Source of the DNA: Okamejei kenojei
Lineage: Eukaryota
NCBI GenBank assembly: GCA_035221665.1
Contig: CM069136.1
Span: forward strand, 53,506,001 to 53,570,000
Length of the DNA: 64,000 nt
Reading direction: 5' to 3'
Shown: positions 4,051-43,586 of the stretch, piece after piece
How positions within the stretch are numbered: the stretch's first letter is position 1
How the letters are laid out: every line of letters begins with the position of its first letter
Program-made: the position numbers and the translations under genes
The notes under the pieces: generated by a model
What the model was told of the DNA's origin: nothing
Seen by the model: the letters and a program-made list of their open reading frames with translations, nothing else
Databases searched by the model: none

Positions 4051-4852
4051 AGGGCGGCACGGGAGCACAGTGGTAGAGTTGCTGCCTTACAGCGCCTGGG
4101 ACCTGGGTTCGATCCTGATTATGGTGCTGTCTGCATGGAGTTTGTACATTCTACCTGTGACCACGTGGATTTTCTCCAGCTGCTCCGGTTTCCTCCCTTG
4201 CTCTAAAGACGTACAGGTTTGTAGGTTAATTGGCTTTGGTATAAAATTGTCATTAATGTGTAGAATCCATTCCCGCACGATGACTCCATGCTCGGCAGCC
4301 TCGCCAGCAGCTCGTGTGTTTCTTTGGACTCTTTGTTGTTTCCTGTGTGTCTGAATGTATGTCTCCCGGTGTGTCTTGTGTGCGGGGTGCTGGGGGGGAA
4401 ATAGGGGCAACCGCTCCCAGTCACTTACCTCGACGGAGATGCAACTTTTTTCCGTGTCGCATTTTTGCCCCTCTCGCGACCTAACAACTGGATCAGTGCA
4501 GCCTTTCCGACCGGATACTGGCCCAGAGCTTCAGCAGCGGGCGCAGTGTGGACCTTAACGTAGCGGAGCTGCTGTACTTTGCCGGGCCTGCTGACATTAC
4601 CATCATGGAACTTGGTCTGTGGGCGCTGCGCGAACATCACGGAGCTGCCTGCGATCCTTTGTCAAGGAACGCCAGAAGAAGTGCTCTGACCACGGGGCCT
4701 GTGGACTTGGTATTATAAATCCGCGATCTCCGGTAGGAAGCGGCTGATTCGGCAATTCCACGCCGCAGAGTGTTCCAATCCATCCCGATGTCCAAGTTTC
4801 GATCTTCCCAGCCCTTGTATTTCCATGCTGTTTCTCTAAACTGAACTAAAAC
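4051..4852 (+). mobile_element. HE1-like SINE with a GC-rich repeat replacing or inserted in its middle (~4270-4810)
   Basis: Head gggcggcacgg...ggttcgatcc at 4051; tail ttccatgctgtttctctaaactgaactaaa; the insert resembles the reverse complement of part of 19300-20035. Confidence 0.65.
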
Positions 4853-5156
4853 TGAGCAATGAAGCACACAATTCCGTGTTAACTGCCACATTGAACCAAT
4901 GGTTTTGAATGTTAGGCTAATGCTAAATGCCTGTTAGAATTTCCAGAATTGTCAAGAAATTTTATTTAATGTTAATTTTCTGGTGATACAGTTGAGCAAT
5001 TTTATGCCCTGTAGACTTCTGATCATAATGTTTTTGAAAGGAAAAAACCATAACCATTTTGTGTCTACAATAATAATATCTCCTACTCAATTTCTTTAGA
5101 ATTATAAGAAATTCCATATGAAAGGTGTAGACTTGCGAAAGAGCCAAAGAGTGGGA

Positions 5157-5740
5157 ATCACTGAGGATGCATCCCAGCTCATCTAGAAGATGTATATTTT
5201 TCACACTGAAGTCTGGCTCAGCCAGTGGCACCTAGGAATAGACTGGGTGACAACCAAGAATAGTTTGGTGACAACTGGAGAGACAGTTGACGGCACGGAA
5301 AGACGGCACCCGGGCCAGGCTGGGTTAGCACCCCAGTCTGTGTCTTTCATGAGAAAGTCGCCCAATAAAGCTACGGAAAGGCCTAATGAACCACCTTGGC
5401 CTAAAAATCCATCAGGGGAGAGTGAAATGCTCAGAGAAGGAGAAAGAGGTGCAGCGCACAGGCCTCGAACCTGGTGAGATGCAGGAGGAGCCTGGCCACG
5501 ACTCACCCCACTTACCCCAGTCCCTCCATGCACTAGAATCTCCCAACCCCTGCAGAGTAGTTATTAAGATGGCTGATCCGTGGGCGGTTGCCACTGGGAC
5601 GAAAGTCGGGGCCTGATCAACCCCGGCTGGGTCGCCTGGGCGAGGGTGTCTGATGTTGCGAGGCCCAAAACACCCGATGACCCCAGATCACATCACTGAG
5701 GATGTGTCCCAGCGCATCTAGAAGATGTATATTTTTCACA
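5157..5740 (+). mobile_element. Short internally deleted HERO-like (RLE-clade non-LTR) element with 49-bp terminal direct repeats
   Basis: Direct repeat 5157-5205 / 5692-5740 (3 mismatches). ORF 5386-5616 fuses an N-terminal Zn-finger tail (GLKIHQGRVKC...QRTGLEPGEMQEEPG) to a C-terminal IKMADPWAVATGT*. Structured UTRs. Confidence 0.7.
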
Positions 5741-6639
5741 GCTGCCCTCATTACTGGAGAGGTAGATAATCTTAATACATAACAAGAGACAGCAGATCTT
5801 AATATATCATACCTCAGAGTTTACAAAAGCATATGAACTCATTGTTGGAAGGAAAAAGTATGTAAGCTTCCTTGGTTTTGAGGATGAAGAGGGATGTGAG
5901 TTGTCTGAACCCTTCAAACCTGCGACAAATTTTCAGTGAAATGAATCAGTGTATATTGGCACAACACAATGATTCACTGGACAATTAAAAACCAATTGCA
6001 AGTACTTAAAAACGAGTCTGGAAAAACATTTATTCCACAATTATGATGGTTATAATTAAAATATAATTTAGTATTAGATTTCAAACTTTTTATTTACTCA
6101 TGGATGTCTTTGAAGATACTGAAGAATGGTGCTTATGTTCAAAATCTCCTGAATGTATTTAACTTTGATTTCTATAAACATGGAGCACGTCTACAGTTGT
6201 GTCCTAATAGCTCATGACTGAAGATGTAGTAACTGTACCACTTGTGGCTCAGTTTTAATTAAGGAATGAATAATTAATACAAAAGTCAATAATTTCTCAT
6301 TACTGTAGTTTACAATTAAATTGATATTGCCCTGCATAGAATGTTAACATTATTTCAATATACCAATCATTAAATTAATTTTGCTTAATTTTTTGTGGTA
6401 CTTAACATCAAGTTTTTTTTGAAGCATGAAGGTGCTTCTGAACTGAAATACGCAAGCACATGTAAAACATATCTATTTTAAGTCTTCTCTGTGGAACAAT
6501 TTATTTTTGTAAATTTGGTGCTCAGAGCACTGGACGGCAAATATTTTTCTTTCAGAACGAAAACTATTTTCAAATAACTAAACTTGACCTGAGTAATAAA
6601 ACTTACCTTTGCTAACGGATAAGGTTAAATGGTCTTAAG

Positions 6640-9505: not shown

Positions 9506-9860
9506 TATATTCCACAATTTTACTTTGTGACTATGTGAAGACCCCACCAGCACGCATGCGCGACATATCGTCCAACGCATTGCGAGCAACAGGCAGGGAG
9601 GAGCGTCGCTCCTCCAGCAGTAGGTTTAAAATGGACCTGCAGGTAAGTTTTTACTATTCTGAGGTCGTTTTTTGGCCACTCTGTATAATTTATTTTACAA
9701 AGCATAAACTACTATGGACAAGTCTAGGACGAAGTCCAAATGGACCGCAACAAAACTGACTGCGGAGGACCGCGGGAATGCGGGCAGTCAGCAGCGGCCA
9801 ACTTCACCTGAGCTGCTAACCGTACGGCCAGCAGCCCCCTACTTGGCACCGTAACTGCCC

Positions 9861-10718
9861 GTGGGTGTACCTTGGACTAGCGGTAAAGCCACCCAAAAGT
9901 CGGATCGGCCCGGAGGCTCGGCAGGGTCCGGGCTGGAAGATTCACCACCTGCGGAGAACGACAGTGGCCGTTTATCTCGCATGGAGCGGTTAATGGAGCA
10001 ACTGCTCCAACATAACCTACTCCAACAAATGGAGTCTGGTCACCATGGGTCTCCTCGGACACCCATGGCAGCACCTTTTACAGGGCTGCCAAATGTCTCC
10101 CTCATCTCAGAGGGGAGCATTAGGAGTCAATACTGGGCTGACTCTGAACATGGGGATTTGGCTGAGGACTCTTCCAGAGTGCTAGGGGTGCAGGAACAAC
10201 AAGAGCTGCTCGGCATGGTCTCCAAATTTGCGATGCCCTCGCAAAAGGGACAGCCGTTACAACCGCAGCTGGCAGCCAGCATCAACTATCTCACCGTCAA
10301 CCAGCTGCAGGAACAAACCATGAGTGACACAGCTGCTAAATATTTAGCACCAGACAACTGTGTTTCACTCAATGTTCCTCCGGTGAACAATCCGATCTGG
10401 GGAAACATCGGTGCTGGCATCAGAACCCAGGAAATAAAGATACAGAAGATCCTTAAACTACTGGCTTCCGGAATAACAGCATTTGCCAGGTCAGTGGATG
10501 GCAAGGACATGTCAGAAGAACAACAGGACACCTTGGCACTCTTCTGCAATGCACAGTTTGAAATAAACTGTTTTAGGAAGAGTGTTATCGGACCTGCTCT
10601 AAATCCCAAATTTGCGGGGTTGTGCAAGACCAGCAGCACGCAACCGCACGCAACCGCCTACTTTACTGTTCGGGGACAACCTGCTGTTAAAGACCTCGAC
10701 GAGGAGCCGTCGGTCTAA
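9861..10718 (+). pseudogene. DIRS gag-like ORF1 (frameshifted near C-terminus)
   Basis: 285-aa ORF upstream of RT; PDNCVSLNVPPVNNPIW motif typical of DIRS ORF1. Confidence 0.7.
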
Positions 10719-11059
10719 TGAAAGCGTCGTCCACTGCCAAGACCTCGTATCCTCGGTGGCAGCACCCCTACGCATCCATCAGCAAGCCAAGATACTACAA
10801 CAAAAGAACAGCAGCTGGTGAAAGTTCCAAGGCTGTACGTTCAGGACAAAGGTCTTTTTTAGACCAAGGCCCATAACGGCCTTCGTGGAAGATGCTCAAC
10901 CCCACACCCGAGCGCCTCCAAACCCCAAGAGACAAGGACGGAAGAAACCAACACAGCACCACCGGTAACCATGGAGGTCGGAGGGTCTGGTTTCTTCCGG
11001 AACATAGCATATGTAAATTCTTCACAAACTAGGGGAAGGTTACACTTGTTTAGAAATGC

Positions 11060-12350
11060 ATGAGTTCCATAACCTCTGATCCTTTTATACTGCAAAGTAT
11101 CCAGGGATACAAAATTGAATCTTTTCACAAAATCCTCCCTCCGGTTCAGCATGCACCTAGCCGAACGTTCGTGCTTTCACAAAAAGAAAGATTGGAAGGT
11201 CATGCAGAACTTTTGAGGTTACATACAAAAGGAGTAATTGGGAAATCCAAACACGAATCTCTTGAGTTTTTATCAAATATTTTCACAAAAAACAAAAAAG
11301 ATGGTGGATGTCGCATCATCATTGCTTTGACACAACTGAATACCTTTGTGTCGTGTACGCACTTCAAAATGGAAACATTTGTTACTGCCGAACAATTAGT
11401 TTCAAAAAGATACTTCATGGCTTGCATCGACCTAAAAGATGCATACTATTCAGTACCAATAGAGAAGGGTCACTGCAAATATCTGAAATGTAACTGGATG
11501 GGGCAGCTCTGGCAATACAAAGCGCTGCCTAATGGATTAACATCAGCCCCCAGACTATTTACCAAAATATTGAAACCAGCCTTGGCGTTTCTCCGAAAAC
11601 AGAAACATATCATCATGGCATATCTGGATGACATCTTAATTGTGGGAAAAACCCTGGAGTTGGCCAAATTGGCTGTTTCAGCCACCAAGCTCTTATTTGA
11701 AAAGTTGGGGTTTATCATCCATCCAGATAAATCCAAGTTAACGCCTTCTATGAAAATGGACTACTTGGGGTTCACAATTGACTCTGTTCACATGTCTGTG
11801 ACTTTGCCAAAGGACAAAGTAACAGACTTAATAGAGGCATGCAACTCCCTTGTTTGCGTCAGTTAACCATCTATTCGACAAGTAGCTAGGGTATTTGGGA
11901 AGCTCGTGGCTGCATTCCCAGCCACACAATTTGGACCCTTGTATAACCAGAAGAAGCACTCAAATACCATGCTGGCCATTTTTACAGGCCAATGCAGTTA
12001 CCAGTCAAAGCAGTTTTGGAGTTGCAATGGTGGATTAACAACACTCGACATTGCTCTAATCCCATCATAATCAAGAACCCTTCAGTTGTGTTACAAATTG
12101 ATGCCGGCGCTCACGGCTGGAGAGCAAACAATACCACCTCCAGTTGCGGTGGTAGATGGAATGCACATTAGTTAACTTTACTTCAGACACTGGGAATAAA
12201 TCATCTAGAGATGTTGGGAGCGTTCCATGGGCTTTGGGCCTATTGTTCGGACATGCACCATCTGCATGTTCGCCTACAAATTAATAATACCACCGTGGTG
12301 GCATATATTAATCATATGGGTGGAATTAAGTCGATATCTTGTGATTAATT
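11060..12350 (+). pseudogene. DIRS reverse transcriptase + RNase H (disrupted)
   Basis: IDLKDAYYSVPI, LPNGLTSAPRLFTK, YLDD; downstream DA..GW and INHLEMLG / NTTVVAYINHMGG RNase H motifs with stops and frameshifts. Confidence 0.92.
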
Positions 12351-12834
12351 GGTCAATACAATCTGGCACTGGTGCATCGAGAGAAATATCTGGGTGTCAG
12401 CTACCTACCTTCCAGGTAAGCTCAATACAGTGGCGGATGACAACACCGAATGGATGTTGGACCACCAAGTATTTACTGACATTGTAGCTCGGTATGGAAC
12501 ACCAGATATCGATCTATTCACATCCAGACTTAATCACCAATTACCAACATATGTTGCATGGGAACCAGACTCTGGGGCAGTAGCGATGGACGCTTTCTCA
12601 TTACACTGGGGGGAATTGTTTTTCTATGCATTTCTCCCCTTCTGCCTCATAAGTCGGGTCTTGCGGAAAATACAACAAGGCTCCCCGTCGGGTATCTTGG
12701 TAGTACCCGACTGGCCTACTCAGCCATGGTTTCCTGTGGTACTCGACATGGTCTCAGAACCATGTATACCCATCTCCAAACGCCCGAGTTTATTGGTTCA
12801 TCCTGTGACAGGCAAAAGTCACCCCGTGCCATGA
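12349..12834 (+). pseudogene. DIRS RNase H end + adenine-methyltransferase-like domain
   Basis: PDIDLFTSRLNHQL, DAFSLHW, YAFLPF (consensus YAFPPF), VVPDWPTQPWFP. Confidence 0.85.
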
Positions 12835-20819: not shown

Positions 20820-23800
20820 CCGCAAGGGAGTATATATCTAAAATAGCAAATGGATCTTTTTTTTGAAATAAATGACACGCCAGACACATCACCAACATTA
20901 TTATGGGAATCTTTCAAAGCTTTTATTAGAGGTGTTTTAATCTCATACCAAGCCTTTCAGAATAAAAAAAATAAGAATGAACAACGGCACCTAGAATAAC
21001 AAATTAGACAATTGGATATAGATAATGCTAAAGACCCGTCCATGTATACACATAATAAAATATTAATACTAAAATTTAAATTAAATAAATTACTATCAGA
21101 GAAAGTTCTAAGATTATTCCAAATTACAAGACATGAACAGTTTGAATTTGGGGATAAGTCCCATAAACTTCTCGCACGCCAGTTAAACAAACGAGAAAAG
21201 GAACACACAATTTCAAAGATTAAATCAGATAGAGGGGAAGTATTAACATTACCGAATTAAATTAATAAAAGATTTGTGAAATTTTATGAGAATTTGTATA
21301 CATCCAAAACGACAACGGACACCAACAAAGTCACTGAGTTCTGGATAATTGCAATCTTCCCAAACTAGAATTGCAGGAACAAGAGGAATTGGGAGCACAA
21401 ATCTCAAGTAAGGAAATAGAAGAAACAATAATCTAATTAAAAAATGGAAAAACACCAGGTCCCGACGGATTCAGTAATGAATTCTATAAAAGTTTTTACA
21501 ATATATTTAGTCCTCGTCTACAGAAAATGTACACACACGCTTTCAGAGAACAAATATTACCTGATACATTAGCAGAATCTACGATTACATTAATAGTTAA
21601 GAAAGATAAAGATGAGGAAGAACCTGGATCTTACAGAGCTATCGCGTTGTTAACTATAGATCAAAAAATATTAGCAAAATTATTAGCAAGAAGATTAAGT
21701 AAGTACGCCAGTAAACTAATACATCTGGATCAAACGGGGTTTATCCCTATGAGACAATCATTTGAGAGTAATAATTTCAGACGTCTGCTTAACATAATGC
21801 ACTCACACCAAACTAAAGATCCAAATCTCGCAATTATTTCGCTGGATGCAGAGAAAGCATTCGATCAGGTTGATTTGAAATATATGGTTAAGGTATTGCA
21901 AAAATTTAAACTGGGAGAGACCTTCATTCAATGGATTAAATTAATATATAAAAAGCCAATGGCCAGAATATTAACTAATAATATTTTATCCACAAAATTT
22001 CAACTGTCAAGGGGTAATAGACAAGGCTGTTCATTATCACCATTGTTATTGCCCTCATAATTGAACCACTAGCGGAAACAATTAGAACTCATCCGAATAT
22101 CCATTGATATAATACAAAATATTCAAACAATAAAATATAATTATAAGCTGATGATGTACCTTTGTACATCACAAAGCCTCATATCACTATACCCAATATT
22201 TTAAATTTAATTGAGGATTTCGGTTAATTTTCAGGTTATAGAATAAACTGGAATAAAACTGAAATCATGTTAATATAACCGAAAGATTCTCCACATCTCG
22301 TACAATTTCCTTTTAAAATAGCTGTGGAAAGATATAAATATTTGGGTATTGAAATCACCAGAAGATATCAAGACATGTTTAAAGCAAACTATAACCCTGT
22401 ACTTAAGAAACTACATAATTTAATTAAATTCTGGAAAACGCTTCCGATGTCCGTAATAGGTTGAATAAATGCCACAAAAATGATTTTTCTACCACAAATC
22501 CTATACTTGTTCCAATCAATCACATTATACCTACCCAAAAAGTTTTTTTTTAAATTGGACTCAGATATTACAAATTTGATTTGGGATTATAAGTCCCATA
22601 GAATACAAAGACCACACCTGAATAAACCCAAAGTAGTAGGGGGGTTAGCACTCCCCAACTTCATGTATTATTATTGGTTGGTAAATATTAGAAATATGAT
22701 TCAATTGTTGCATAATTCTATTCATCAACCGGAATGGAACATTATGGAGAAAGAGGACTGCTCCCCTTTTAATATTGGTGCGATCCTTCTTTCACCGAAG
22801 ATGGTGAATAATACAAACTACAACAAAAACCCAATTATACATAGTACAATCAAAATTTGGAAACAAATAAAATACAACTTAAAATTAAGAAACTTATCTC
22901 TCCTATCTCCTATTGCTTAAAACCCTCTATTTAAACTCTCAATTATAGATAAAGCATTTATAGAGCAGGAATTAAAATTTTGGGAGCATTGTATGATACG
23001 GGAAAACTATTATCATTTAAACAATTACAACTAAAATACAATCTGGGTAACAATCAGTATTTTAAATATTTCCAAATATGTGATTATCTGAAAAAACATC
23101 ACAAAATGCCAATAGACTTACTAGATGAAGTAATGAATACAAAGGCGGAATCAGCAAATTTAATTTCATATGTATATAATATTATACTAAATGCAGTAAT
23201 ACCAACAACGGAAGGTATTAGAGGTGAGTGGGAAAACGAACTAAGCATAACAATTTCCAATGAAAGGTGGAAAGAGTACTTATTAAATGTGCACAAATGC
23301 TCAAATAACATAAGACACACTTTAATACAATTTTAAATTTTACACAGATTATACTATTCAAAAACTAAATTAAATAACTGTTTCCCCAACGTTTCCCCAA
23401 CGTCTCACAAAATGCCAGTTTCAAGAGGCTACTATAACGCACTCATTCATCTTTTGTACAAAAATTCAAAGGTTTTGGATTGAAATCTTTGAAATCTTCA
23501 CAAAACTGTTTAAAATAAAAATGACACCAAAGCCAGAATGGATTAATTTCGGAATGACAGAAAGTAGTTCGGAATTAAATAAATAATCTATTTGATTACA
23601 GCTTAATAATAGGAAAAAAGCTAATCGTAAAATTCTGGAAAAATTATACCAACATTAAATATGTGGATTTCAACTATGTTTGAAACATTACATCTGGAAG
23701 ATATGAGACTCTGCCTGGCAGGAAAATCAGATTGCTTCTATCAGACGTGGTCTGCATTTATAGAATTGCTACAAAGATAGGGTGCAGGAGTACCTCGGGC

Positions 23801-35211: not shown

Positions 35212-38200
35212 TTAATATAGGGAGACCATATCTCCTTGAAGAGATCTAACCTGTCCATGAGGGACAAGTCTCAATCTCTCCAAGTGAAGTGTCTCCGTCA
35301 TTTCTGTATTCCACATTTTAATTGTTGGGGATACAGGGCCTTTCCAAAATTTTAATATTAATTTTTTCCCAATTATTAAAGAATAGTCGATAAAAGTTCT
35401 ATGATTCCTTGTAATTATTTGTTCCATTTCCGGTATTCCAAGTATGATTAACTTTGGGTCATAAATCATAGTAATATTAATAACTTTCGAGATTGTTTTG
35501 AATATTTCATTCCAATATTGTAAAATCTTCGTACAATTTAGTAAATGAGTGTGACAGAGTTGCTTCCATGATTTGACATTTATCACATATAGGTGATAGT
35601 TTTGGAAATATATTATGTAGTTTAGATTTAGAATAATGTAATCTATGTAAGATTTTAAACTGTATAAGTGCATGTTTAGCGTTTAAAGAGCAATAATGTA
35701 TATGTTGTAGGCTTTCTTCCCATATTTCTGGACTTATTATTTGACTTAGTTCATTTTCCCAGCGCTGTCTATGTATTTCCGATGATGGGATATCACTTTC
35801 CAACAAAATGTTATAAATGTATGATATCATTTTTTCTGTATTTGGGTGTTTATTCAAGCATTCATCTAAAATTTCACTCTTTCTATTTCTAAGTTCTTGT
35901 GTATTTGCGGAAATATAGTTTCTGATTTGTAAATATCTGAAATATTCATTATTATGAAGCCCGTAAATTTGTTGTAATTCTTGAAATGAAAGAAATGAAT
36001 TATCCTTATAGAGATCCCCTATGTTTAGAATTCCTTTATTTTTCCATTGTATAAAAGCTTTATCCATCATTGACGGTTTAAACGTAAAATTATTGGCAAT
36101 TGTAAGAGCTAGCGGTATAAATTTTAGTTTTAATGTTTTTCTTTATTTGTTTCCAAATACGTATTCCACTTTCTATTATCAGATTTTCGCTATAAGTTTT
36201 CTTAGGTACATTAATATTAGCAAATATTTAGAGCTAATTTCAAATGGAAAACAGTCTTCTCTTTCCATTTTTAACCAATTTGGTTTATTATCTATTTCTC
36301 CTAACCAAAAATTCATATTTCTAATATTAACTGCCCAATAATAGAACATAAAATTTGGTAAAGCTAAACCCCCGTTTATTTTAGCTTTACATAAATGTTT
36401 TTTATTTATTCTATGATTTTTGTAGTCCCAAATAAAGTTAGTGACTATTGAGTCTACTTTTTTAAAGAAATTTTTAGAAAGATATATCGGGATTGATTGA
36501 AATAAATATAATAATTGTGGGAGGAAAATCATTTTTATTGCGTTTATTTTACCTAACATTGAGATAGGTAAGCTTTTCCAATATAAGATATTTTATTTAA
36601 TTTATTCAATAATAACGGGAAATTAGATTTAAATAAAGAGTCAAATCTTTTTGTAACAAAAATACCAAGATATTTTAATATTTTCATTTGTTATCTTGAA
36701 AGGAAATTGTTGTAATATCTGTAAATTATTCATGGTTTATTGGCATAAGTTCACTTTTATTCCAATTGATGCTATATCCTGAAATTAAACCAAATTCCGT
36801 TATTAGTTTTAACAAATTACAGATACTTATTTCCGGTTTTGTAATATAAAGTAGTATATCGTCCGCATATAACGAGATTTTATTCTTAGTATCTTTAGTA
36901 TCGTATCCATATATTTCTGGATGTAGTCTTACCCTTTGAGCAAGGGGTTCGATTGCTAACGCAAACAGTAATGGTGATAAAGGACAGCCTTGTCTACAAC
37001 CTCGAGATAAACTAAACTTAGTTGATAACATATAATTTGTTATTATTCTAGCTGTTGGATTTGCGTATAATAATTTAATCCAAGTAGTAAACTTATCACC
37101 AAGCTTAAAGGCTTCCATCACCGAAAATAGATAAGGCCATTCCACCTGGTCAAAAGCTTTTTCTGCATCCAACGAGATGACTACTAAGTCTTTTTTATCA
37201 CTTCTTTTCGAGTATATAATATTAAATAACCGTCTTAAATTATATGAAGAATATCTTTTAGGTATAAATCCTGTTTGATCAGGATGAATTAATTCATTAA
37301 CAATTTTGCTTAGTCTTTGTGCAAGAATTTTTGTTAAAAATTTTTTGATCGGTATTTAATAAAGCAATTGCTCTATACGATCCTGGATCATCCAAATCTT
37401 TATTTATTTTGGGTATAAGTGTTTATAATAGATTCGTTCAATGTGTCTGGTAATTTCTCTTGTATATATATCTGTTCATATAATGATTTTAAATATGGGA
37501 CCATTTGGGCATGAAAAATTTTATAAAATTCCGAGCCTATACCATCTGGTCCTGGAGTTTTACCATTTTTTAAAGATTTAATAGATTCTTGGATTTCTTT
37601 TATTGAAATATCGGCATTTTAAAAATTCTCTATTTTGTAAATCTAATTCTTTTAAGTTACATACATTTAAAAAAGGCATCTATTTCTGTTTTATTTACTG
37701 TTGTGTTACCAGTATACAAATTTTTATAATATTGCATAAATCTTTCATTAATATCCTTGGGTTGTATTAATAATTCACCGTTTTGTGATTTTAATCCTAT
37801 GTATAATTTTTTCCGCTTCAATTTTCCTTAATTGTCGAGCCAATAGTTTTTGTGGTTTGTCTCCAAATTCAAACAACAATTGTTTAGTATGTTGGTAGTA
37901 TTTTAAAACTTGATCAGTATATTTTATTTAATTTATACTTCAATGCTACAATTTTATTATGTATTATTATATCTGATTTTGTTGCATTCTGTATATCTAA
38001 TTGTTTGATCTCCCTTTCTAAGTCATGTTGTTCCTTCCGAATCTTCTTATTATGGAATGCTTGTGAAGAAATCATAATTCCTCGAAGATATGCTTTAAAT
38101 GTTTCCCATAATAAAGAGCGAGATATTTCTGGTTGATCATTTATTTCAAAAACATCTTAATCTGGGTTATGATGTATTCCTGAGTTGTTTTATTTTTTAA

Positions 38201-42436: not shown

Positions 42437-43586
42437 CAGTAGTCTTTCCGCCAGTCTTTCCATCACCTTTGAAAACTTTTATTGCTGTTTATCCACATGA
42501 GGACCAAAGTTGTGCCAATGAAAGTCAAAGAAGCAATTATGAGACCATGGGACAAGAATAAAACTGTTAGAAACATCAGCCAACCGTTAGGCTTACCAAA
42601 ATCAACTGTTTGGAACATCATTAAGAAGAAAGGGAGCGCTGGTTAGCTTACTAATCACAAAGGGACTGGCAGGCCAAGGAAGACCTCCACAGCTGATGAC
42701 TGAAGAATTCTCTCTACAATAAATAAAAATCCCCAAACACCTGTCTGACAGATCAGAAACATTCTTCAGAAGTCAGGTGTTTATTTGTCAATGACCACTA
42801 TGCGCAGAAGACTTCATGAACAGAAATACTTAGGCTACGCTGCAAGATGCAAACCACTGGTTGCCCGCAAAAATAGGATGGCCAGGTTACAGTTTGCCAA
42901 GAAGTACTTACAAGAGCAACCACAATTCTGGAAAAAGTTCTTGTGGACAAATGAAACGAAGATTAACATATCAGAGTGATGGCAGGAGCAAAGTATGAAG
43001 GAGAGTAGGATCAGCCCAAGATCCAAAGCATACTACCTCATCTGTGAAACACAGTGGTGGGGGTGTTAAGGTCAGGGCATGTATGGCTGCTGAAGGTACT
43101 GACTCACTTAACTTAATTGATGATACAACTGCTGATGGTAGTAGCATAATGAATTCTGAAGTGCATAGACACATCCTAACTGCTCAAACAAATGCCTCAA
43201 AACACATTGGCCGACGGTTTATTCTACAACAAGACAATGATCCCAAACATACTGCTAAAGGAACAAAGGAGTTTTTCAAAGCTAAAAAATGGTCTATTCT
43301 TGAGTGGGCAAGTCAATCACATGATCTGAACCCAATTGAGCATGTCTATTATTTGCCGATAAGAAAACTGAAGGGGACTAGCCCCCAAAACAAGCATAAG
43401 CTAAAGATGGCTACAATACAGGCCTGGCAGATCATCACCAGAGAAGACACCCAGCAACTGTTGATGGCCATGAATCACAGACTTCAAACAGTCATTGCAA
43501 TGAAAGGATATGCAACAAAATACTAAACATGACTACTTTCATTTACATGACATTGCTGTGTCCCAAACATTATGGTGCCCTGAAAT
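42437..43586 (+). mobile_element. Tc1-family DNA transposon (defective)
   Basis: TA|CAGT left end; HTH (GLPKSTVWNIIKK, GRPRKTS); WTNETK, QQDNDPKH, DLNPIEH (DD34E-type, first D mutated); right TIR incomplete. Confidence 0.92.

Follow-up and report, generated by a model that had tools for sequence, protein, structure and literature searches.

A multicopy, doubly deleted derivative of HERO-type retrotransposons with a candidate type-SGC hammerhead in its 3′ UTR

Between positions 5157 and 5740 of the 64,000 nt of Okamejei kenojei DNA analysed here (the whole stretch is hereafter called the window), a compact unit is preceded by a repetition of its own last bases. The direct repeat (5157-5205 / 5692-5740) is 49 nt long, with a spacing of 535 nt and an identity of 46/49, and it raises the question of how a retroelement comes to carry part of its tail in front of its head. 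An initial annotation, made from the letters of this DNA, took the unit for a retrozyme-like, terminally redundant mini-retroelement of HERO-like ancestry. Here we follow the insertion through genomic contigs, metagenome contigs, and protein relatives, and weigh the mechanisms that could place a tail before a head.

Limits of the insertion

The three mismatches of the repeat are C/T, A/G, and T/G, the first two being CA versus TG of one decayed CpG, just as initially described. The repeat pair is unique for this sequence within the window (BLAST of the window, E 1e-15), and the same search yielded no second copy of the element within the 64 kb. The unit is, as had been noted, richer in GC than its surroundings (0.54 inside, 0.33 in either flank), and all of the hairpin arms named in the initial annotation are present in the sequence, the tcgcc/ggcga hairpin as written having a loop of just 2 nt. 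The excess of folding is modest: the entire element has a z of -1.77, with 3 of 100 shuffles equally good, and the head (5206-5345) a z of -2.61, with 4 of 200 shuffles equally good.

The window contains 180 N and is otherwise rich in LINE, SINE, and DNA-transposon debris. A broken multi-ORF retroelement at 9855-12834, which we take to be DIRS-like, matches RVT_1 at 11054-11863; L1-like elements occur at 20860-22962 and, oppositely oriented, at 36050-38152, and the two are 66% identical over 2.1 kb; a Tc1-like DDE fragment lies at 42999-43526; and the sequence at 4054-4266, 900 nt upstream of the element, belongs to a SINE-like family of which the window has about ten copies.

Logan contigs were taken from four runs (X1, X6, X9, and X17; organisms A, B, C, and F) among 24 runs listed. 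In organism F, one 1,513-nt contig runs from the left flank to 5739 with the element missing, and its empty site reads GGGAATCA followed directly by GCTGCC. Neither copy of the 49-mer is there, which identifies the repeat as the 3′ end of the element itself rather than a target-site duplication, as the initial annotation had already argued from the hairpin that the repeat completes. Judged by this site, the junctions consist of 4 nt of microhomology on the 5′ side and a 2-nt CA overlap on the 3′ side. The ATCA at 5157-5160 belongs to the host, its agreement with the element being due to chance or microhomology; the inserted redundancy is consequently 45 nt (5161-5205) and the insertion 5161-5740, so that the 3′ end first proposed stands and the 5′ start moves from 5157 to 5161. 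The insertion and its surroundings are delimited as follows.

4850 to 5156, no strand: left flank, single-copy; one contig per run, depth 7-22
5157 to 5160, + strand: host ATCA that also occurs in the empty site of organism F; 4 nt of microhomology with the element at its 5′ junction
5161 to 5205, + strand: partial upstream copy (45 nt) of the element's 3′ end, repeating 5696-5740 and absent from the empty site
5741 to 6150, no strand: right flank, single-copy; depth mostly 7-22, one long contig per run

The orthologous insertion is found in A and C (both junctions) and in B (3′ junction), and the flanks diverge from the window by ~0.2% in A, 2% in B, and 5-6% in F. Loss of the element from F through recombination between the repeats was considered and rejected, since one 49-mer would remain. 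The GA-rich stretch adjoining the insertion on the left (5116-5156) shows small indels between A, C, and F. If a one-off deleted copy had been framed by a long target-site duplication, the unit would likewise be flanked by direct repeats, but such an origin has practically no chance of being correct: it is refuted by an empty site without either copy, other elements have 3′ ends homologous to the repeat, and the deletion junctions described below are common to other copies in four species.

Parentage and spread of the unit

A motif scan of metagenome contigs gave five loci (L001-L005), four of which match 5608-5708 at 89-91% and the fifth at 76%. In two of them (L002 and L003), sequence coding for an RT thumb and endonuclease lies immediately upstream of the matched 3′ UTR. 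The L003 ORF, used as a query, retrieved 241 proteins, the 120 listed being for the most part fish proteins of ~1,050-1,250 aa with RVT_1. The parent proteins are encoded by a single ORF and carry an N-terminal zinc finger, RT, a C-terminal CCHC, and PD..E.K-type endonuclease motifs. Among the retrieved relatives is P0060, annotated as 'Polyprotein, Tetraodon nigroviridis, Q7T1J8', which is presumably Zebulon of Tetraodon, and we take HERO / Zebulon as the labels of the parent group. A quick tree of 22 relatives, P0060 included, was drawn without an outgroup, and the clade assignment is not based on it.

Comparison with these proteins resolves the unit into the following parts.

5206 to 5388, + strand: head / 5′ UTR of a HERO-type parent with several hairpins, by comparison with relatives (fold z -2.61 over 5206-5345)
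5386 to 5390, + strand: deletion junction 1, ~130 nt (43 codons) gone; 43 residues skipped in 3/3 informative relatives
5389 to 5562, + strand: N-terminal coding remnant (zinc-finger tail and linker), with matches in 41/120 listed relatives
5562 to 5563, + strand: deletion junction 2, ~2.97 kb (989 codons of P0119) gone, from the alignment to P0119
5563 to 5616, + strand: final codons of the parent ORF and stop, IKMADPWAVATGTKVGA*, 14/17 identical to the P0119 C-terminus
5386 to 5616, + strand: 76-codon ORF, judged incidental; ATG at junction 1, no homologue
5617 to 5740, + strand: 3′ UTR with a short T run and CA at its end, without poly(A); ~90% identity to L001-L004 over 83-101 nt

Between the window ORF and P0119, residues 17-81 are matched at 58% identity (E 2e-23), and the ORF corresponds to residues 17-75 of a full-length relative followed by its last 16 residues. 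Upstream, 5262-5390 resembles the region ahead of the zinc finger in 3 of the 120 listed relatives (P0117, P0021, and P0116). The three relatives informative for junction 1 are those whose annotated ORFs reach far enough upstream. What was lost at this junction is the native start region together with the front half of the zinc finger (CxCGKxC), and the short ORF owes its ATG to this deletion. Junction 2 removes all of the RT and the RLE endonuclease. By sequence comparison, the unit is thus a doubly deleted (~130 nt and ~3 kb) derivative of a fish HERO-type RT/RLE element.

Several claims of the initial annotation can be judged against this parentage. The HERO likeness of both ends is confirmed, since both match HERO-type RT/RLE elements (P0119, L001-L004), and the deletion junction expected near 5555-5565 falls between 5562 and 5563. 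The 76-aa ORF does join a zinc-finger tail to a C-terminus, but a second deletion, of ~130 nt at its ATG, had been overlooked. Given that this ATG was made by junction 1, the 76-codon ORF is best regarded as incidental. No Pfam match was found for the 87-codon frame and no candidate homologue of 41-133 aa for the 76-aa ORF, and a genuine protein was rejected on these grounds.

Longer parent copies exist in the same genomes, as the parent C-terminus AAEKATRWLW can be read from loose ends before 5563 in 8 contigs each of X6 and X17. A 412-nt scaffold in a bacterial genome record (L006, 1-412) carries a fragment 90% identical to a fish element RT and is probably host contamination of the bacterial assembly. 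P0147 and P0152 pass from sequence like 5400-5527 into the 3′ UTR frame in the space of a few dozen codons, at a junction common to both and unlike that of the window; both also carry the U-R variant of a stem I pair considered below, and they probably represent another, independent mini-element family.

The mini-element is a mobile, multicopy family whose members share deletion junctions at different loci. Among the 32 pieces listed (8,814 others), junction 1 is spanned by contigs of ~10% divergence in each of the four runs, and junction 2 by such contigs in X1, X9, and X17; they occur also in F, which does not have the window insertion. The many copies with the same junction that the initial annotation had anticipated are thus present, and the unit is no single copy with a unique deletion. 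The median element depth over 5202-5553 is 628-2,887 times that of the flank, rising at the 3′ end to as much as 5,755-10,830 times flank (3-9 times the depth of the head); contig depth is not copy number, and we take these values to mean the order of a thousand or more. Behind 5740, which is the usual 3′ end of the family and whose CA (5739-5740) overlaps the target, 35, 37, 60, and 51 contigs per run exit into unlike flanks. The loose-end consensus shows a bias to C, T, and G right after 5740 that partly reflects the first bases of the head and is too weak to count. At 5513 and 5515 the window copy has a private T and C where nearly all other copies in the four runs have G. In each of the four runs, 10-18 contigs carry unrelated sequence ahead of 5603 and run into the 3′ UTR at that position; a second family of HERO type has this 3′ UTR in common with the unit and raises the 3′ depth.

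Since short 3′ fragments are this abundant, and RLE elements are often sequence-specific (PMC4640811), the tail in front of the head could in principle stem from self-targeting, that is, from insertion of the unit into the end of an older, 5′-truncated family copy in two separate events. We regard this as very unlikely, because the empty site of F has no element fragment and two insertions would have had to hit one spot after the split from F, and because the repeat copies differ at just 3 of 49 positions, two of them from one CpG.

Among known systems, the closest by homology is the HERO clade of RLE non-LTR elements of fish, with HEROTn, HEROFr, and HERODr among its members. Most elements of this RLE clade insert without site specificity (PMC4640811, PMC3636483, PMC7650587, PMC13708176, and PMC13580325). 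Both ends of the unit are homologous to such single-ORF RT+RLE elements, but the unit lacks RT and endonuclease and spreads as a 535-nt family. The joining of 5′ and 3′ ends by internal deletion, with mobilisation in trans, resembles R2 SIDEs and other bipartite non-autonomous LINEs (PMC3414825), which, according to PMC5786205, had as of 2018 been reported for RTE, Ingi, Vingi, and R2 only. Like SIDEs, the window family has parts joined by internal deletion, no RT, and a junction shared by many copies; it differs in its HERO-type parent, its two deletions, its dispersal, and its roughly thousand-fold depth. Neither the 5′ HDV-like ribozyme nor the rDNA target of R2 SIDEs was found, there being no HDV-like match and the flanks being single-copy and AT-rich; the candidate ribozyme of the window family is located 3′, and only the terminal redundancy brings it to the 5′ side.

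A candidate type-SGC hammerhead

In the 3′ UTR, hammerhead blocks run in the order cleavage site, GAAA, CUGAnGA (S-G-C). This is the order of type SGC, which was named and validated in vitro by Eckert et al. 2023 (PMC10085705), whose examples all come from assembled metatranscriptomes (Supplementary Note 1 of that paper), and whose descriptor includes an extra U after CUGAUGA. The predicted parts of the motif are given below.

5644 to 5709, + strand: type-SGC (non-circularly permuted) hammerhead-like motif, predicted from the sequence
5644-5649 with 5670-5675, + strand: predicted stem III, 6/6 pairs in the window
5651-5656 with 5690-5695, + strand: predicted stem I, 6/6 pairs in the window
5661-5666 with 5704-5709, + strand: predicted stem II, weak
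Between 5650 and 5651, + strand: predicted cleavage site, from a descriptor match to the sequence
5696-5702, + strand: CUGAnGA block, with the extra U at 5703, from the descriptor
5667, + strand: G12 position, A in the window copy

Stem III had been seen initially as the gggtgt/acaccc hairpin, and the cacatc/gatgtg hairpin noted at the same time overlaps the CUGAnGA block.

The strict published descriptor matches none of six sequences (the window and L001-L005). When one stem II mismatch is allowed it matches L004, and when CpG decay at C11.1/G12 is also allowed it matches L002 and one place in the 64 kb, both strands having been scanned. At the relaxed level 0 of 20,000 shuffles of the unit match, and at a looser level 1 of 20,000, figures that overstate the significance because the descriptor was relaxed post hoc with the sequences known. 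All core nucleotides (UH, GAAA, CUGAnGA, and G10.1-C11.1) in S-G-C order are found in L004, which retains CGAAA and CUGAUGAUG; the window copy fails at G12. L001 stops at a contig edge, and L005 is without the GAAA block. Of the five DNA copies with the position, two (L001 and L004) keep G at G12 and three (the window, L002, and L003) have A there; N7 also varies among the DNA relatives. In the alignment of the six DNA sequences, pairing amounts to 100% for stem III, 94% for stem I, and 81% for stem II, with no pair changed on both sides; a pyrimidine mismatch adjoins G10.1-C11.1 in three of four sequences, and the position is paired in L002.

Further DNA relatives were sought in viral contigs, with none found, and in genome contigs, which gave none by pattern and one 412-nt RT fragment by protein. 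As DNA relatives are few, covariation rests on the six DNA sequences together with translations. A 40-codon frame over the motif, used as a query, retrieved 45 proteins, of which 44 were kept after removal of P0173, a repetitive chance match; these relatives were chosen by likeness to the query, and bases were inferred from residues. The G12 codon reads E (GAR) in 29/44, K in 11, and another residue in 4, K being the change expected from CpG decay. The codon covering U16.1/H17 reads S in 26, Y in 16, H in 1, and C in 1 (n=44), which makes H17 a C or A in 42/44 and G in 1. For G5-A6-N7, the 15 relatives in that frame give D (10), E (2), K (2), and N (1). Every readable core letter is intact in 16 of the 44 translated relatives, and the positions that vary, N7 and H17, appear to be those that a hammerhead leaves free. 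At the stem I pair 5653/5693, after 12 of the 44 were set aside as too short or ambiguous, the remaining 32 read A-Y (25), U-R (5), A-R (2), and U-Y (0); the association has a Fisher p of 1e-4, in which the five U-R sequences may represent one or two lineages. The compensated pair would belong to the pseudoknotted stem I and not to the rival hairpin.

The fold itself is predicted to have competitors. Rival hairpins over the CUGAnGA block reach -6.6 and -6.2 kcal/mol alone, compared with -2.4 for stem I and +2.0 for stem II, and the minimum-energy fold favours other hairpins. The fourth helix between the far sides of stems I and II, which SGC ribozymes need, was not found; a 3-bp candidate pairs in the window and fails at 2/3 pairs in the L loci, where the region is poorly aligned. 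A second helix (5627-5640 with 5679-5686, CUGGG/CCCAG) seems to prolong stem III and is invariant in 6/6 DNA sequences, its 5627-5633 register being more conserved in the translations.

Other ribozyme classes gave no match. A search of Rfam returned 0 matches at the gathering level and five chance-level ones at E up to 10, with no ribozyme among them. With the unit treated as a circle, an HDV-like descriptor, itself without a positive control, matched neither strand, and ordinary hammerhead descriptors found nothing complete and no circularly permuted form with GAAA after stem II.

The window motif and published SGC ribozymes (HRIMA-1 and variants) share the S-G-C order, a short stem I-II linker, CUGAnGA with the extra U and G, GAAA, a UH site, and 6-bp stems I and III (PMC10085705). 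They differ in fold: stem II of the window motif is predicted to be mismatched beyond its first pair, a search for the I-II helix did not find one, and stem III seems extended. They differ also in setting: published examples come from metatranscriptomes and were linked to virus-like circular RNAs (PMC10085705), the window motif from the 3′ UTR of an animal retrotransposon. The available text of Eckert et al. 2023 makes no mention of HERO, fish, or Danio (PMC10085705). The literature searched, in which few subscription journals were covered, contained, among the listings covered, no report of a ribozyme for HERO, and no prior report of an SGC hammerhead in a retrotransposon or of a HERO bipartite family was found in it; a hammerhead and a restriction-like endonuclease came together in a paper on R2 engineering.

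From its ordered core and its pattern of variation, we consider it likely that the motif self-cleaves between 5650 and 5651 in intact family members. The window copy is probably dead, given its G12 to A change and a redundancy too short for a second ribozyme (45 against ~97 nt): 5161-5205 contains the CUGAnGA block, the 3′ strand of stem II, and the T/CA tail, and has no room for an entire ribozyme.

How the tail comes to precede the head

Redundancy is a trait of the family as a whole. Head-to-tail joints that go back from tail to head, such as the other redundant or tandem copies sought at the suggestion of the initial annotation, occur in X1, X6, and X9, one of them at a depth of 277, and in all four runs the depth immediately before the head is 0.88-2.07 times that immediately after it. 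Among the 24 loose-end rows listed (873 more; ranking rule unstated), there is no pile-up before 5206 or 5651, and no indel near 5205 is found among the rows listed. Loose ends before 5157 run on as further tail sequence in 4 and 9 contigs. Heads that are normally preceded by tails of variable length would account for both the missing pile-up and the comparable depth on either side of the head. In X1, the depth is 277 (~40 times flank) both at a joint from 5739 to 5282 that includes 3 extra letters and at a deletion of 16 nt located at 5303; a shorter, ~445-nt unit (5282-5739) with a junction of its own seems to have multiplied there, as a subfamily or a tandem array.

The redundancy first noted for the mini-element is therefore real, but it is not peculiar to it. 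P0117, an annotated full-length relative of 1,216 aa, opens with translated 5589-5731, then continues with the head and the full ORF, and so has at least ~150 nt of tail upstream, reaching past the predicted cut with a core that reads intact at the protein level. A full-length relative with its tail before its head indicates that the redundancy was inherited from the parent. Zebulon of Tetraodon reportedly occurs in partial tandem (head-to-tail) arrays, as Bouneau et al. are said to have described in 2003.

As the predicted cut falls 90 nt short of the usual 3′ end, a ribozyme there would be of use only in a terminally redundant or tandem copy. Our preferred reading, which we rate as evenly poised between right and wrong, is that the family is reverse-transcribed by the parent RT/endonuclease from a self-cleaved, ligated RNA circle, giving a tail before the head. 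A source copy with at least ~97 nt of redundancy would carry two ribozymes, and its read-through RNA would be cut twice into a unit-length monomer and ligated, as shown for retrozymes. Priming by the parent protein would then take place near 5740, with microhomology of a few bases (CA in the window copy), and the RT would go once round the circle and halt at a variable point in the second round. Copies extending beyond ~97 nt alone would regain two ribozymes, which the window copy (45 nt, G12 to A) would not have done. Such a cycle predicts a fixed head-to-tail junction, redundancy able to pass the cut (as in P0117), and no pile-up of 5′ ends, and the contigs agree with these expectations. It counts against the circle that insertions end at 5740, 90 nt past the predicted cut, so that priming would have to be internal.

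The same cycle, with reverse transcription of more than a unit length, has been proposed for Penelope-like elements (PMC4209133), and RNA circles have been demonstrated in animal retrozymes (PMC7229834). As small, non-coding, head-to-tail units with a hammerhead and a proposed circular template, animal non-LTR retrozymes and Penelope-like elements resemble the window unit (PMC7229834, PMC4209133). Animal retrozymes, however, have a type I hammerhead, a length of 170-400 nt, GC <50%, an origin from Penelope pLTRs, and a GIY-YIG partner (bioRxiv 10.64898/2026.07.22.740005), whereas the window unit has 535 nt, 54% GC, a type-SGC candidate, and coding remnants from both ends of an RLE parent. The unit may work like a retrozyme and is not one by the type I / Penelope pLTR definition; the retrozyme-like reading in the initial annotation is strengthened by a specific candidate ribozyme in the 3′ UTR, which it had not named.

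An active hammerhead could also act on linear RNA. If only the upstream ribozyme cut, the RNA would have a 90-nt leader repeating the 3′ end, RT would start from the true 3′ end, and an occasional transfer to a homologous 3′ UTR, on the same or a second RNA, would restore the upstream ribozyme. R2 has a 5′ ribozyme, and R2 SIDEs use it (PMC3414825). All of the ribozyme evidence would serve this explanation equally; 3′ ends at 5740 would need no internal priming, 45 nt fits within the 90-nt leader, and the rival hairpin could keep the downstream ribozyme off. It also predicts many 5′ ends at the equivalent of 5651, of which none is seen among the 24 loose-end rows listed, and the at least 150 nt of P0117 would demand an additional strand transfer; we consider it unlikely.

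A working ribozyme might be dispensed with altogether, the redundancy arising by R2-style template jumping, in which the RT passes from one RNA's 5′ end to another RNA's 3′ end, or by read-through of genomic tandems with a promoter in the upstream tail; the 3′ UTR fold would then be a mere protein-binding signal or the relic of a ribozyme. R2 RT does jump templates in vivo (PMC3414825), and the failure of the strict descriptor, the weak stem II, the missing fourth helix, and the preference of the minimum-energy fold for other hairpins all point this way. What such an account leaves unexplained is the complete and ordered core, the freedom of N7 and H17, and the compensated stem I pair. Jumping would moreover be expected to give many tailless heads and ragged junctions, but the listed rows show neither a pile-up before 5206 nor an indel near 5205. 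We hold this account, too, to be unlikely.

Taken together with the circular template, our fullest proposal is a tentative one, to which we give slightly less than an even chance: HERO/Zebulon-type fish LINEs would have an active, non-circularly permuted 3′ UTR hammerhead and rolling reverse transcription of circular RNA, and the 535-nt family would be a viroid-sized circular-RNA parasite in thousands of copies, giving the type-SGC ribozyme its first genomic home, and one in an animal. The novelty lies in a multicopy HERO-derived family together with a candidate SGC hammerhead, which makes the circular-template idea directly testable. With this family, HERO would become the fifth LINE clade to spawn two-part non-autonomous families (four are given in PMC5786205), and again one with a ribozyme, here a candidate. 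If the motif cleaves, a ribozyme fold known from environmental RNA alone would be a common vertebrate genomic repeat, offering thousands of natural variants for structure studies. If the circular template is real, it would provide a testable cause of head-to-tail HERO-type copies and imply an R2-related RT/endonuclease able to prime inside a circular template, and such internal priming would be relevant both to gene-insertion tools of the R2 type and to the handling of RNA by non-LTR elements.
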